From: Escherichia coli 042
Lineage (GTDB): Bacteria > Pseudomonadota > Gammaproteobacteria > Enterobacterales > Enterobacteriaceae
Reading direction: 5' to 3' (one strand)
Length of the DNA: 64,000 bases
NCBI RefSeq assembly: GCF_000027125.1
Contig: NC_017626.1
Shown: positions 121 through 43,975 of the stretch, one piece after another
Layout of the letters: every line of letters starts with the position of its first letter
How positions within the stretch are numbered: the first letter of the stretch is position 1
Program-made: the position numbers and the translations under genes
The notes under the pieces: model-generated
What the model was told of the DNA's origin: nothing
Databases searched by the model: none
Seen by the model: the letters and a program-made list of their open reading frames with translations, nothing else

Positions 121-1236
121 ATGCATCGACAATTCTTTTTCTCTGTGCCCCTTATTTGTCTTTCTTCCGCTCTCTGGGCGGCTCCTGCAACGGTAAATGT
201 CGAAGTACTGCAAGACAAACTCGACCATCCCTGGGCGCTGGCCTTTTTACCCGATAATCACGGTATGTTAATCACTCTGCGCGGCGGCGAGTTGCTTCAC
301 TGGCAAGCAGGAAAAGGATTATCTGCGCCGCTTTCCGGAGTGCCGGACGTTTGGGCGCACGGGCAGGGCGGTCTGCTGGACGTGGTTTTAGCGTCTGATT
401 TTGCTCAGTCGCGCCGCATCTGGTTAAGTTATTCCGAAGTTGGCGATGATGGCAAAGCCGGAACTGCTGTGGGTTATGGCCGCTTAAGTGATGATCTCTC
501 AAAAGTGACCGACTTCCGCACCGTCTTTCGCCAGATGCCAAAACTGTCTACCGGCAACCATTTTGGCGGGCGGCTGGTATTCGACGGTAAAGGTTATCTT
601 TTTATTGCTCTGGGCGAAAACAATCAGCGCCCGACGGCGCAGGATCTGGATAAATTACAGGGCAAACTGGTGCGTCTGACCGACCAGGGCGAAATCCCGG
701 ATGATAATCCTTTTATAAAGGAATCCGGTGCGCGCGCCGAGATCTGGTCTTATGGCATTCGTAATCCGCAAGGAATGGCGATGAATCCGTGGAGTAAAGC
801 ACTATGGCTGAATGAACATGGCCCGCGCGGTGGTGATGAAATTAATATCCCGCAAAAAGGCAAAAACTACGGCTGGCCGCTGGCAACCTGGGGAATCAAC
901 TATTCGGGCTTTAAGATACCGGAAGCGAAAGGGGAGATCGTCGCCGGGACCGAGCAACCTGTTTTTTACTGGAAAGATTCGCCCGCCGTGAGCGGCATGG
1001 CCTTCTATAACAGCGATAAATTCCCCCAGTGGCAGCAAAAATTATTTATTGGTGCGCTGAAAGATAAAGATGTCATTGTGATGAGCGTCAACGGCGACAA
1101 AGTGACAGAAGATGGCCGTATTTTAACGGACAGGGGGCAGCGAATTCGTGATGTTCGCACTGGACCCGACGGTTATTTATACGTTCTCACCGACGAGTCC
1201 AGTGGGGAATTACTTAAAGTTAGCCCACGCAATTAG
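121..1236 (+). CDS. yliI: PQQ-dependent soluble aldose sugar dehydrogenase
   Basis: 371-aa ORF with signal-peptide-like N-terminus; recognised sequence and K-12 synteny. Confidence 0.9.
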
Positions 1237-1859
1237 CTAACGGGAATCATCACCACTTTGCGCACTGCTGGGCGTTCAGTGAGTTGCTGATACCAGCGTT
1301 GCAGATTTGGACGCGGTGTCCAGGTCAGGCCAACGTTAAACAAATTGTAGATGAACGGAGCGATAGCGATATCGCCCACACCAAACTCGTCGCCAGAGAA
1401 CCATTTTACTTTTGCCAGTTCCGCATCGAGCAGGGCAAACAGGGCGTCGCACTCTTTACAACTGGCATCAATGGCGGCCTGATCGCGCTCTTCCGGTGGT
1501 GTTCTGACTAATCCCATCAGGATCCCGCGATGGGCATTACTGAGCGTCTGGTTTGCCCAGTCCATCCATTTTTCTGCTTCCGCACGACGTGCCGGTGAGT
1601 CGATCCACAGGCGTTTTTGCCCGTACTGTGCCGCCAGATAGCGGACAATGGCGTTTGATTCCCAAAGAATGAGATCACTTTCGTCGTCACGCAACAACGG
1701 CACCAGCCCGTTAGGGTTCATCGCCAGAAAATCAGCATCGTGATTTATCCCAAACTCACGGCCCGCGAGAATTTGCTCATAAGGTAGTTCCAGTTCTTCG
1801 AGCGTCAGCAATACTTTTTTTACGTTGGTTGAATTATTCCGACCCCACAGCGTAATCAT
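1233..1859 (-). CDS. gstB: glutathione S-transferase
   Basis: ORF 1233..1865; start trimmed to MITLWGRNN to give the 208 aa I remember; convergent 4-bp overlap with yliI. Confidence 0.85.
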
Positions 1860-2105
1860 ACTCACCCCTTTTCCGACAGGCAGCCACAGGCTGAACAGGA
1901 CTCCGATGGTGAAGTAAAGTTAACTTTTAAGCAACAGCTGGCAAAAAAATGACACCAGAAGCAGCGAAGCGGCAGGATATTGCATAAACTTTAAAAACTT
2001 TACCAACTTACGGTTTCTTTAAGTTTGTGTGTGCGTTATTAATCACCGAACTTATCATACGGCGATATAACGTATTTTTTTTGAATGGATACTCGGGTGG
2101 CATTT

Positions 2106-38976: not shown

Positions 38977-39672
38977 TTAATTACGTTTTTCCAGCAGGGT
39001 CCGGTAAATCAGACCACCGATAATGCCGCCGACAATTGGCACCACCCAGAAGAACCACAGTTGTTCTAATGCCCAGCCGCCCTGGAAGATAGCAACCGCG
39101 GTGCTGCGCGCCGGGTTAACAGAAGTGTTAGTCACCGGAATACTGATTAAGTGAATCAGGGTTAAGGCCAGACCAATAGCGATCGGCGCAAAACCAGCAG
39201 GAGCGAATTTGTCGGTTGCGCCGTGGATCACCAGCAGGAAACCTGCACTCAATACCAGTTCAACTACCAGCGCGGAAAGCATGGAATAACCGCCTGGCGA
39301 ATGCTCGCCATAACCGTTAGAAGCAAAACCGCTGGCTGCCGCGTCAAAACCCGTTTTACCACTGGCAATTAAATACAGCAGCGCCGCTGCAACAATACCG
39401 CCGACAACCTGGGCAATTACGTAGCCAACGACTTCTTTTGCCGGAAAACGTCCGCCAGCCCATAAACCAATAGTGACCGCCGGGTTAAAATGACCACCAG
39501 AAATGTGACCAACAGCAAAGGCCATCGTCAGAACGGTCAGACCGAACGCCAACGCCACGCCGGCAAAACCAATGCCTAATTCCGGGAAGCCTGCGGCCAG
39601 TACGGCACTACCACAGCCACCAAAAACAAGCCAGAAAGTACCAAAACATTCAGCTGCTAATTTTCTGAACAT
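38977..39672 (-). CDS. aqpZ: aquaporin Z
   Basis: Two NPA motifs (HFNPAVT, NPARS). Confidence 0.93.
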
Positions 39673-40097
39673 ATCCACCTCAATTAAAAATTGACCCTGT
39701 GAAAAATATGGTCGTTTTATAGGGTCGTCGTAAAAAAGTGACGACGGAAATAATGCGCGGCTATTTTAAAAACGAAGGCAAATCATTCGCCAGATAAATA
39801 AATCCAGTAAATTTGATTTAGGGCAACAGCGGGTTGCCCCATATAGTCATTTGTCTGATTGACAGTGTAGTGCAAGCGAAAGATTTAATCCTTTAGGCGT
39901 AATAAAAAATAATTTATCATGCTAATTATTTGATTTTGTTGTTTTTGCAGGCTTATCAGCAAGAGGGAGTATAACGCGATTATTCGCTCATTTTTCAGAC
40001 ATTTGCCATGCTTAAATGTGATGTCATCACGTATTAGCATGGCCTTTCCCGTTATACTGCCAGCGTAAAGGATAAGTCACATATTTCTGGAGGGGAT

Positions 40098-41756
40098 ATG
40101 ATTCTTGAGCGCGTTGAAATTGTGGGTTTTCGCGGTATCAACCGTTTGTCGTTGATGCTGGAACAATACAACGTCCTGATTGGGGAGAACGCGTGGGGTA
40201 AATCCAGCTTGCTGGACGCCTTAACTCTGCTGCTATCGCCAGAATCAGATCTCTACCATTTTGAGCGCGACGATTTCTGGTTCCCGCCGGGAGATATCAA
40301 CGGTCGGGAACATCATCTGCATATTATTTTGACCTTCCGCGAATCGCTGCCAGGCCGACATCGGGTTCGCCGCTATCGGCCGCTGGAAGCGTGCTGGACG
40401 CCATGCACCGATGGCTATCACCGTATTTTTTATCGTCTGGAAGGGGAGAGTGCGGAAGACGGCAGCGTGATGACACTGCGCAGTTTTCTCGATAAAGACG
40501 GACATCCGATTGATGTCGAGGATATTAACGATCAGGCACGCCATCTGGTGCGTTTAATGCCGGTGCTGCGCTTGCGTGATGCCCGTTTTATGCGCCGTAT
40601 TCGTAACGGCACGGTGCCAAATGTCCCTAATGTGGAAGTCACCGCGCGCCAGCTCGATTTCCTCGCCCGTGAGTTGTCCTCACATCCGCAAAATCTCTCT
40701 GATGGACAGATTCGTCAGGGACTTTCCGCAATGGTACAGCTGCTTGAGCATTATTTCTCTGAGCAGGGGGCCGGACAGGCGCGATATCGTTTAATGCGGC
40801 GGCGAGCCAGCAATGAGCAACGAAGCTGGCGCTATCTGGATATCATCAACCGGATGATTGACCGACCTGGTGGGCGCTCGTATCGGGTTATTTTGCTCGG
40901 CCTGTTTGCTACTTTGTTGCAGGCAAAAGGCACATTGCGGCTGGATAAAGACGCCCGTCCATTATTGCTGATTGAAGATCCAGAAACCCGTTTACACCCC
41001 ATTATGCTTTCAGTTGCCTGGCATCTGTTGAACCTTCTGCCATTGCAGCGCATCGCTACTACCAACTCGGGAGAGTTGCTTTCGTTAACGCCGGTAGAGC
41101 ATGTTTGCCGACTGGTACGTGAGTCCTCTCGCGTTGCCGCCTGGCGTCTGGGACCGAGTGGCTTGAGTACCGAAGATAGCCGACGCATATCCTTTCACAT
41201 TCGTTTTAACCGTCCGTCATCGCTGTTTGCCCGTTGTTGGCTGCTGGTGGAAGGGGAAACGGAAACCTGGGTTATCAATGAACTGGCGCGTCAGTGCGGA
41301 CATCATTTTGATGCCGAAGGGATCAAGGTCATTGAGTTTGCCCAGTCCGGGCTAAAGCCACTGGTTAAATTTGCCCGGCGAATGGGGATTGAATGGCATG
41401 TACTGGTCGATGGCGATGAAGCAGGGAAGAAATATGCCGCTACGGTACGCAGCCTGTTGAATAACGATCGGGAAGCCGAACGAGAACATTTAACGGCGTT
41501 ACCGGCGCTGGATATGGAACATTTTATGTATCGGCAGGGATTTTCCGATGTGTTCCACCGCGTGGCGCAAATCCCGGAAAATGTACCGATGAATCTGCGC
41601 AAAATTATCTCGAAAGCGATCCATCGCTCTTCCAAACCCGATCTTGCCATTGAAGTGGCAATGGAGGCAGGACGTCGTGGTGTGGATTCCGTACCGACGC
41701 TGCTGAAAAAAATGTTCTCACGCGTGCTGTGGCTGGCGCGCGGTCGCGCGGATTAA
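40098..41756 (+). CDS. ybjD: OLD-family-like ABC-type ATPase with putative C-terminal nuclease domain
   Basis: N-terminal Walker A GENAWGKSS, Walker B-like LLLIEDPETRLHP; 552 aa. Confidence 0.85.
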   Translation: MILERVEIVGFRGINRLSLMLEQYNVLIGENAWGKSSLLDALTLLLSPESDLYHFERDDFWFPPGDINGREHHLHIILTFRESLPGRHRVRRYRPLEACWTPCTDGYHRIFYRLEGESAEDGSVMTLRSFLDKDGHPIDVEDINDQARHLVRLMPVLRLRDARFMRRIRNGTVPNVPNVEVTARQLDFLARELSSHPQNLSDGQIRQGLSAMVQLLEHYFSEQGAGQARYRLMRRRASNEQRSWRYLDIINRMIDRPGGRSYRVILLGLFATLLQAKGTLRLDKDARPLLLIEDPETRLHPIMLSVAWHLLNLLPLQRIATTNSGELLSLTPVEHVCRLVRESSRVAAWRLGPSGLSTEDSRRISFHIRFNRPSSLFARCWLLVEGETETWVINELARQCGHHFDAEGIKVIEFAQSGLKPLVKFARRMGIEWHVLVDGDEAGKKYAATVRSLLNNDREAEREHLTALPALDMEHFMYRQGFSDVFHRVAQIPENVPMNLRKIISKAIHRSSKPDLAIEVAMEAGRRGVDSVPTLLKKMFSRVLWLARGRAD

Positions 41757-42745
41757 CCGCGAAACATCGTGGCCATTTGTGGCTGAATAGCGTCGAGCAT
41801 CTCATAGCGCCGACGGTATTCAGCCCGTTTTTTACTGGCGATTTCGGCAATCTCTTTTCGTGCTATCTGTGCTGGAAGGCGGTAATGGCGTTCAGCATCA
41901 CATACGCCGCCAACCGACTCCCAGAACGCGTTGTAATCAGCATGGATCTTGCCTTCTTTATCGCGATAACGCAGGCTGCGGTAAATATGTGTTTCATTGC
42001 TGACGGCAATGATCTGCTCTACCTGCAAACGTTGGGCAAACAGACAGGCTGCTTCCATCACAAGGCGTTTGGGAAATAGCCCGTGGCAGGCTTTCGTCGC
42101 ATTCTGGATTTCCTGATGTGGAATTTCCCATTTTGCGCCTTGCAGTCCGCCAATAAACATTGTTCTTTTCCCCTGATATTCACACAGGGTAAACGTGATC
42201 TCTGCCAGAGGAATACCTTCGCTGTTGCGGAACAGGATTGTGCTGTCACCTTCTTTATCCATTGAGATCATCATGGTCAGCTCAAGTGTGAACTGCTCGC
42301 CGTTTTTGCCTTCCAGCTTCGCCAGTTGCAGCCCGGGGGTATTCAAATATAAGCTGAATTCTTCCGCCGACATACACCCGCGGAGTAACGCATAATGGTA
42401 ACGTAACGCCTCCAGCAATTGCTTACGGCTAAGATTCGCCGCAAGGTAAGGGCGATGCAGACGCACAGGCAGTCGCGGCTGGCGCGTTAACAACACATTG
42501 AGATTAGGCCAGTGGGAAAGTTCGTTCATCCACTCAACGCTTAAACGCGGCATAATCAACGAGCGCAGCAAAAATTTCTGGCGAAAACTACGGCGATGCC
42601 AGAATTTACCCGGCCGACACTGTCCACGTGCCAGACTAAGAAAAAGTGACAGGCTGCTGAGAGATTCAGATGGCGTAAAGGTCCGTTCAGTTAGCTGCGA
42701 CATATTCATGAAATCAATGGTTATACATGACGTCGATTTCACCAT
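41753..42745 (-). CDS. ybjX: VirK/YbjX (DUF535) family protein
   Basis: 330-aa ORF; synteny; 4-bp convergent overlap with ybjD. Confidence 0.85.
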   Translation of the reverse strand: MVKSTSCITIDFMNMSQLTERTFTPSESLSSLSLFLSLARGQCRPGKFWHRRSFRQKFLLRSLIMPRLSVEWMNELSHWPNLNVLLTRQPRLPVRLHRPYLAANLSRKQLLEALRYHYALLRGCMSAEEFSLYLNTPGLQLAKLEGKNGEQFTLELTMMISMDKEGDSTILFRNSEGIPLAEITFTLCEYQGKRTMFIGGLQGAKWEIPHQEIQNATKACHGLFPKRLVMEAACLFAQRLQVEQIIAVSNETHIYRSLRYRDKEGKIHADYNAFWESVGGVCDAERHYRLPAQIARKEIAEIASKKRAEYRRRYEMLDAIQPQMATMFRG

Positions 42746-42859
42746 TGCGTATCTTAACCAAACATCAATAGTGTGATTACTAACGTAAATTTTAGGGTTT
42801 TGTTGATATTTCGTTGAAGTTAATGACCCGGATTGGCATATGGAGTATTCAGAATATTT

Positions 42860-43975
42860 ATGAAAAAGCGGAAAACCGTGAAGAAGCGTTACGTTATTGC
42901 GCTGGTGATAGTCATCGCCGGGCTGATTACGTTATGGAGAATTCTTAACGCACCCGTGCCGACTTATCAGACGCTGATTGTGCGCCCCGGTGAATTACAG
43001 CAAAGCGTGCTGGCGACCGGAAAGCTGGACGCGCTGCGTAAGGTTGATGTGGGCGCGCAGGTCAGCGGTCAGTTGAAAACGCTGTCGGTGGCGATTGGCG
43101 ATAAAGTAAAAAAAGACCAGCTTTTAGGGGTTATTGATCCTGAACAGGCTGAAAACCAGATTAAGGAGGTGGAAGCAACGCTGATGGAGCTACGCGCGCA
43201 GCGGCAGCAGGCGGAAGCGGAGCTGAAACTGGCGCGGGTGACGTATTCCCGTCAGCAACGTCTTGCACAAACGCAAGCGGTTTCACAGCAGGATCTTGAT
43301 ACCGCCGCGACGGAGATGGCTGTGAAACAGGCGCAAATTGGCACCATTGACGCGCAAATCAAGCGCAATCAGGCCTCACTCGATACGGCTAAAACCAATC
43401 TCGATTACACCCGCATCGTTGCCCCGATGGCCGGGGAAGTCACGCAAATAACCACTCTGCAAGGCCAGACGGTGATTGCCGCACAACAAGCACCGAACAT
43501 TCTGACGCTGGCAGATATGAGCACCATGCTGGTAAAAGCGCAGGTTTCTGAAGCGGATGTAATCCACCTGAAGCCGGGGCAAAAAGCCTGGTTTACGGTG
43601 CTTGGCGATCCGCTGACGCGCTATGAGGGGCAAATCAAGGATGTGCTACCGACGCCGGAAAAGGTTAACGACGCTATTTTCTATTACGCCCGTTTTGAAG
43701 TCCCCAACCCCAATGGTTTGCTGCGGCTGGATATGACCGCGCAAGTGCATATTCAGCTCACCGATGTGAAAAATGTGCTGACGATCCCTCTGTCGGCGTT
43801 AGGCGATCCGGTTGGCGATAATCGTTATAAAGTCAAATTGTTGCGTAATGGTGAAACACGCGAGCGTGAAGTGACGATTGGCGCACGTAACGATACCGAT
43901 GTTGAGATTGTCAAAGGGTTGGAAGCGGGCGATGAAGTGGTGATTGGTGAGGCCAAACCAGGAGCTGCGCAATGA
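42860..43975 (+). CDS. macA: macrolide efflux membrane fusion protein
   Basis: Start MKKRKTVKK; coiled-coil periplasmic adaptor. Confidence 0.92.

Follow-up and report, generated by a model that had tools for sequence, protein, structure and literature searches.

The genes ybjD and ybjX of Escherichia coli 042 lie tail to tail within the 64-kb stretch of DNA analysed here (the window), onto which coordinates of E. coli K-12 were mapped with an offset of 876375, and they belong to a core locus with the gene order lysO-aqpZ-ybjD-ybjX-macA-macB. The two genes converge so closely that their stop codons interlock on a shared tetramer (Table 1); on the + strand, the 3' end of ybjD reads GCG GAT TAA. 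The original prediction for this DNA described a convergent overlap of 4 bp between the two stops, and both the sequence and the reference annotation of K-12 MG1655, which carries the identical overlap (ybjD, 916473..918131; ybjX, 918128..919120), bear it out. The window and MG1655 are collinear over positions 40098-42862 with 98.55% identity and zero indels, and the segment 41700-41860, which includes the junction, is the same in both.

Table 1. Features of the ybjD-ybjX junction and of the ybjX promoter, in coordinates of the 64-kb window.
Feature	Position	Strand	Basis
ybjD (proposed name oldB), 552 aa, OLD-family ATPase and Toprim protein	40098..41756	+	Open reading frame (ORF), Pfam, PADLOC, K-12 b0876
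ybjX, 318 aa from Met13 (experimentally supported start); legacy ORF to 42745, 330 aa	41753..42709	-	ORF, Pfam, PGAP, published start mapping
TTAA common to both stops (ybjD TAA, 41754-41756; ybjX TAA, complement of 41753-41755)	41753..41756	.	Sequence
ybjX-strand RNA antisense to the 3' half of ybjD, ending at the published Rho region	40871..41752	-	PMC7815308, mapped coordinates
Intrinsic-terminator-like element for ybjD	41781..41833	+	Inverted repeat and fold; in codons 9-26 from the ybjX C-terminus
PhoP box TATTGA-TGTTT-GGTTAA, covering the ybjX promoter's -35 region	42754..42770	-	Pattern match
ybjX -10 hexamer TGAAAT (42741-42736) and transcription start site (TSS; about 42727-42728), both within the legacy 330-aa ORF	42727..42741	-	Sequence against published mapping

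The product of ybjD matches the Pfam families DUF2813 (E = 6e-160), OLD-like_TOPRIM and AAA_15, with AAA_15 and DUF2813 covering residues 1-375 and OLD-like_TOPRIM following at residues 376-440, and it is also recognized by the PADLOC models for GajA (4.7e-80) and Old (1.7e-25). Comparison with the sequences of the PDB returned weak matches to GajA and an OLD nuclease, and an NCBIfam scan gave just sub-threshold matches to ATPase motifs. This succession of an N-terminal ABC/AAA ATPase and a Toprim domain at the C-terminus is the architecture that defines Class 1 OLD proteins, and it is common to P2 Old and to GajA of the Gabija system. YbjD has no partner helicase or retron gene: ybjD stands alone between aqpZ (lysO in Salmonella) and ybjX, the latter followed by macAB, and neither a UvrD/GajB-like helicase nor a retron partner is adjacent to it. 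A recent experimental study likewise assigned ybjD to the stand-alone OLD genes of Class 1 and mentioned its convergent arrangement (PMC13261556, 2026); over-expression of YbjD was found to be cytotoxic, and plasmid-borne YbjD alone conferred an anti-phage phenotype (PMC13261556). The published work on YbjD consists of phenotypes only (PMC13261556). Together with the Pfam and PADLOC matches, that study upholds the earlier description of ybjD as OLD-like. The gene differs from those of P2 Old and GajA in its genomic setting: it belongs to the core chromosome, with 90% identity from E. coli to Salmonella, and is not part of a mobile island. As a separate observation, 5424 of the 5426 complete E. 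coli genomes have the locus annotated as ybjD, ybjX and macA, and ybjD is 90% identical in Salmonella and Citrobacter, so that it looks like a core housekeeping gene, which fits poorly with its having been described as a rare defence gene of the Class 1 OLD type. Its distant relatives at loci L018 and L020 sit among ribH-nusB-thiL-pgpA and dxs-ispA-xseB.

YbjX is a member of Pfam family PF04393 (DUF535; E = 3e-102), with a score of 342.1 bits against a cut-off of 27, and residues 48-325 of the 330 in the legacy protein cover positions 2-280 of the 281 in the profile. Its tblastn alignment to virK of Shigella virulence plasmids spanned 87% of the query, with 38-40% of residues identical and E near 1e-46; these plasmid matches are annotated virK alone. 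The assignment of ybjX to the VirK/DUF535 family thus stands, on both the Pfam score and the identity to the plasmid-borne VirK. No NCBIfam model was found for YbjX in a scan of that collection, and neither the PDB sequences nor the PADLOC defence models yielded a match. Shigella plasmid VirK and Salmonella YbjX (SomA) share with the window's ybjX both the Pfam family and the PhoP-box design of the promoter, ybjX differing from the plasmid virK in being the chromosomal, core-genome copy. In Shigella, single deletion of ybjX was reported to be without phenotype, the gene only reinforcing virK. Accounts of VirK/YbjX proteins conflict: a Shigella study describes a cytoplasmic, GNAT-like protein, whereas work with avian pathogenic E. 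coli (APEC) and Klebsiella places the protein in the outer membrane with a role in lipid A myristoylation.

Two opposed stop codons can be superimposed in four tetramers, namely TTAA, TTAG, CTAA and CTAG, and the frequency of convergent overlaps was observed to jump at a length of 4 (Lillo and Krakauer, 2007; PMC2174442). The ybjD/ybjX junction belongs exactly to this canonical class, with zero differences, and three of the four tetramers occur among its orthologous junctions. Two further examples are present in the window, both on TTAG: yliI/gstB (121..1236 on the + strand and 1233..1865 on the - strand, overlapping at 1233-1236) and amiD/ybjS (28549..29379 and 29376..30452 in the same orientations, overlapping at 29376-29379). 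In the corresponding 50 kb of K-12, 4-bp overlaps account for three of the 11 convergent junctions. The ybjD/ybjX overlap is therefore of the commonest kind among convergent genes and is not unusual; it is also not a chance event, because it is conserved. A small GC hairpin that encloses both stops (CGCGG-ATTAA-CCGCG, 41747-41761; -10.2 kcal/mol, z = -2.6) was considered and set aside: it is present in K-12, and since it is broken in other Escherichia it is probably due to chance.

Conservation was surveyed with one genome per species, which gave 13 loci with a YbjX relative; the peptide patterns used were specific to close relatives, and Salmonella and the more distant YbjD relatives were reached by protein searches and contig look-ups. 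The Enterobacteriaceae contributed 11 loci, six from Escherichia (two E. coli strains, E. albertii, E. whittamii and two further species), three from Citrobacter and two from further genera, and all 11 carry a convergent ybjD with the exact 4-bp overlap, as TTAA or CTAG. The tetramer at locus L010 is CTAG in place of TTAA, and the Salmonella junction has an equal 4-bp overlap as TTAG. The neighbourhood aqpZ-ybjD-ybjX-macA is syntenic across the examined loci, and the pair has therefore been inherited by vertical descent. Its two members have diverged to very different extents. The E. coli and Salmonella proteins share 57% identity for YbjX and 90% for YbjD; in the two distant genera of Enterobacteriaceae, YbjX is just 48% identical and the overlap is still 4 bp, with YbjD at 85-86%, AqpZ at 86-89% and MacA at 80-86%. 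YbjX thus evolves much faster than its neighbours, as seen at loci L010, L011 and L016.

When orthologues were compared, the C-terminus of YbjD was found to be invariant, and the tail of YbjX to be variable in sequence and constant in length. Any change of TTAA to a sequence outside the allowed tetramers would extend a protein, and so coding constraint on the two C-termini is enough to explain why the overlap persists; antisense regulation is not needed for it.

Because each coding sequence (CDS) contains the shared bases, it cannot occur that both transcripts end before the overlap. For the ybjX strand, Adams et al. (2021; PMC7815308, Supplementary file 2) record a region of Rho termination at K-12 position 917246, on the - strand and antisense to ybjD, where 299 reads upstream and 18 downstream were counted without bicyclomycin (BCM), and 568 and 545, respectively, with it (Rho score of 15.9, p = 6.9e-53). 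This position corresponds to approximately 40871 in the window, within ybjD and 882 nt past the ybjX stop. The RNA beyond that stop is C-rich and G-poor, and a terminator composed of a hairpin and a U-tract was not found on the - strand after ybjX. A run of seven U residues at 41706-41712 was rejected as a ybjX terminator, the adjacent hairpin being inadequate (z = -1.3). Between 39600 and 43200, one sigma-70-like site was detected, on the + strand, while the - strand within ybjD showed none; the simplest source of the antisense RNA over ybjD is thus inferred to be transcription that reads through from ybjX.

With zero intergenic spacer between the two genes, any terminator must lie within the partner gene, and for ybjD a candidate is found inside ybjX. 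A 15-nt inverted repeat, GGCTGAATAGCGTCG at 41781-41795 and CGACGGTATTCAGCC at 41811-41825, is 93% complementary (14 pairs) and is directly followed by CG and then TTTTTT (41828-41833). The hairpin folds with -26.7 kcal/mol (z = -5.08), a stability reached by none of 200 shuffled sequences, and among the hairpins that adjoin the window's 237 runs of five or more T residues it ranks second in stability. The element extends from 25 to 77 nt beyond the ybjD stop, and the hairpin itself covers codons 9-24, counted back from the ybjX stop. The stem is preserved in Escherichia and Citrobacter, with 94.6% of cells paired in 12 sequences compared to 25-57% in slid controls. A stable hairpin directly followed by a U-tract is the sequence signature of an intrinsic terminator, and this one probably ends the ybjD transcripts. 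An Rfam scan of 39600-43200 at E <= 1 returned zero RNA families.

This arrangement bears a likeness to the bidirectional terminators and programmed collisions described by SEnd-seq (Wang et al., bioRxiv 10.1101/2022.10.23.513370) in that a convergent pair is associated with a stable stem-loop near its boundary, at which polymerases arriving from either side can meet. The resemblance ends there: the ybjD hairpin lies within the ybjX CDS rather than between the genes, its U-tract is on one side so that it would act one way at best, and the ybjX strand is stopped by Rho far inside ybjD. Bidirectional termination at this hairpin was consequently ruled out, given its place within the ybjX CDS and the continuation of the - strand as ACAAAUGG, which lacks a U-tract.

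At the other end of ybjX, the legacy annotation was found to be in error. The original prediction took the gene to 42745, the start of the 330-aa model, and that start is too long by 12-14 codons according to published TSS mapping and mutagenesis. A genome-wide study of start sites placed the K-12 ybjX TSS 18 bp downstream of the ATG in the legacy model and noted that orthologues start at Met13 (PMC2760140). The same TSS was obtained for Shigella ybjX by primer extension together with mutagenesis of the -10 element, and Met-to-Leu mutants showed translation from Met13 or Met15 (PMC12562796). With Met13 at 42709 and Met15 at 42703, the real ybjX CDS spans 41753-42709 (or 42703), and the PGAP CDS is indeed of 957 nt and 318 aa. 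The K-12 reference nevertheless still carries the 330-aa model, overlong by 12-14 codons at its 5' end.

The PhoP box of the window (TATTGA-N5-GGTTAA) is identical, letter for letter, to the Shigella box that was validated by mutagenesis (PMC12562796), and Salmonella ybjX is directly activated by PhoP through two PhoP boxes (PMC3335776). The proposed PhoP control of the gene is well supported by these two lines of evidence and, judged by the sequence of its promoter, ybjX in this window is predicted to be under PhoP control. The promoters of ybjX and macA stand back to back in a spacer of approximately 115 bp (42745-42860), with the ybjX PhoP box between them; in Shigella, 58 bp separate the two TSSs and the -35 regions partly overlap (PMC12562796). 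One difference between the window and K-12, at 42730, falls near the ybjX TSS.

Overlapping transcription of the pair is already documented in K-12. The 165 convergent excludons that ExcludonFinder gives for MG1655, each detected in 50% or more of 58 RNA-seq samples (NAR, 2025; PMC12288877), include ybjD-ybjX, and both yliI-gstB and amiD-ybjS appear in the same list. The claim that transcription of either gene must reach into the other is true by the geometry and is supported by this list and by the Rho region approximately 880 nt inside ybjD (PMC7815308), and the pair thus has the overlapping transcripts of a convergent excludon. Its listing rests on RNA-seq coverage only, and the reciprocal regulation reported in that paper was demonstrated for the case study relBE-ydfV, not for ybjD-ybjX (PMC12288877).

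The best-supported reading of these observations is that mutual antisense transcription is a by-product of the arrangement; ybjD and ybjX are very probably two core genes, unrelated to each other, that have come down by vertical descent as a convergent pair of an ordinary kind, with stops interlocked on TTAA. An embedded, one-way intrinsic terminator would serve ybjD and a distant Rho-dependent stop would serve ybjX. The ybjD mRNA would thereby end at the hairpin and its six U residues, imposing an obligatory overlap of approximately 80 nt with the ybjX mRNA, and the antisense RNA over ybjD would stem from transcription that starts at the ybjX promoter, under activation by PhoP, and reads through. 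The overlap of 4 bp, for its part, would persist since changes to TTAA alter one or both protein ends, and not as the result of selected antisense regulation. Mutual interference, whether by collision of polymerases or by RNase III cleavage of double-stranded RNA, is physically possible; it would be strongest on ybjD upon induction of ybjX by PhoPQ and is probably small at basal expression.

Several points weigh against this account. Support for the ybjD terminator from covariation is weak, there being one compensatory pair and a signal that does not exceed that of the shuffled control. Only Escherichia and Citrobacter have a strong hairpin, and in Citrobacter its U-tract is broken up; in Salmonella and two distant genomes the hairpin is no better than shuffled sequences. 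Among the curated Term-seq 3' ends of PMC7815308, none falls at the predicted ybjD terminator (K-12 9179xx-9183xx), a result that may reflect too low an expression of ybjD. On the opposite strand, the published antisense reads over ybjD are not traced to the ybjX promoter. Finally, overlapping CDSs fall within the ExcludonFinder definition almost automatically once both genes are expressed, so that the listing says little on function; and, because capture of double-stranded RNA with p19 is not feasible as a validation of convergent excludons (PMC12288877), the listing documents overlap and not regulation.

The alternative that fares best is a working excludon, in which ybjX, induced by PhoPQ in response to low Mg2+, antimicrobial peptides or the intracellular niche, sends polymerases and an antisense RNA of approximately 880 nt through the 3' half of ybjD and lowers expression of this potentially toxic OLD ATPase-nuclease by head-on collisions and RNase III; conversely, transcription of ybjD would enter the 3' end of ybjX by approximately 80 nt. 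Such regulation would build on features that the pair does possess, as its overlapping transcription is documented (PMC12288877, PMC7815308), ybjX is strongly activated by PhoP, and YbjD is cytotoxic when over-expressed (PMC13261556). It would also accord with the head-on polymerase collisions established at convergent E. coli genes (bioRxiv 10.1101/2022.10.23.513370), and with the finding that excludon pairs are more syntenic than other neighbouring pairs (PMC12288877). However, coding constraint already explains the conservation of the overlap, the terminator hairpin is not conserved past Escherichia and Citrobacter, and overlaps of this type are frequent, with three in the window and 165 listed pairs. 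Published measurements of the expression of either gene in a mutant of the other, or of opposite expression of the two, were not found in the literature searched, in which two papers mention both genes (PMC12288877, PMC13261556), nor was evidence of a regulatory effect of the overlap. A functional excludon is thus considered unlikely. Still more doubtful is its most specific form, that PhoPQ-induced ybjX transcription might be a built-in antisense silencer of ybjD (oldB), with the Escherichia-specific hairpin setting the reach of the reverse interference.

A different proposal is that the two genes form a module, for example one in which an OLD nuclease and a partner of VirK type work together in defence or envelope stress; the interlocking of the stops would then be a sign of their co-inheritance. 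The pair is indeed adjacent and interlocked in all Enterobacteriaceae examined, but the whole neighbourhood is syntenic, so that adjacency reflects vertical descent. YbjD homologues with 53%, 44% and 41% identity have no DUF535 neighbour, the DUF535 genes of Massilia have no OLD neighbour, and YbjX fails to match any PADLOC defence model. The convergent genes also have separate promoters, plasmid-borne YbjD gives its anti-phage phenotype alone (PMC13261556), and the two proteins differ widely in their rate of evolution (57% identity for YbjX compared to 90% for YbjD between E. coli and Salmonella). The module is, in consequence, largely refuted and highly improbable. That the overlap is an artefact of annotation, one of the ORFs ending earlier or being no gene, gains some colour from the truly mis-annotated 5' end of ybjX, which shows the legacy annotation to be imperfect, but it is almost certainly wrong given that in orthologues of five genera the alignments run to the final residue of both proteins and the stops are still interlocked, that the Pfam matches reach residue 325 of the 330 in YbjX and extend through the Toprim domain of YbjD, and that both proteins have been expressed and studied (PMC13261556, PMC12562796).

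The genes, their overlap, the overlap of their transcripts and the Rho-dependent stop have all been recorded before. The practical consequence of the favoured reading, that of an ordinary convergent pair, concerns genetics: with the terminator of each gene inside its partner, deletion alleles are likely to alter the 3' end of the partner's transcript in cis, and perhaps its expression. The virulence phenotypes of ybjX and the phage phenotypes of ybjD obtained with knock-outs should hence be read with these embedded terminators in mind. Should the antisense effect prove sizeable, the PhoPQ regulon would be linked to the level of an OLD-family protein and, if the silencer existed as proposed, host or envelope-stress signals would turn down a core anti-phage or DNA-processing activity.

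Minor variations were noted elsewhere in the locus and among its relatives. In Salmonella (L016/L017), aqpZ is absent between lysO and ybjD, and Escherichia sp. MOD1-EC7003 retains only fragments of it. For macA of E. albertii NBRC 107761, the match is split into two segments, residues 1-206 and 203-381, as a frameshift in the gene might produce. In the closest matching genome, that of strain MEW (L014, 459-1484), a gene for an IS110-family transposase lies between lysO and aqpZ; it is absent from the window. Lastly, PLSDB record CP088669.1, a 730-kb E. coli sequence filed as a plasmid, contains ybjX-ybjD at 100% protein identity, and it is probably either chromosomal sequence misfiled as a plasmid or a very large chromid.

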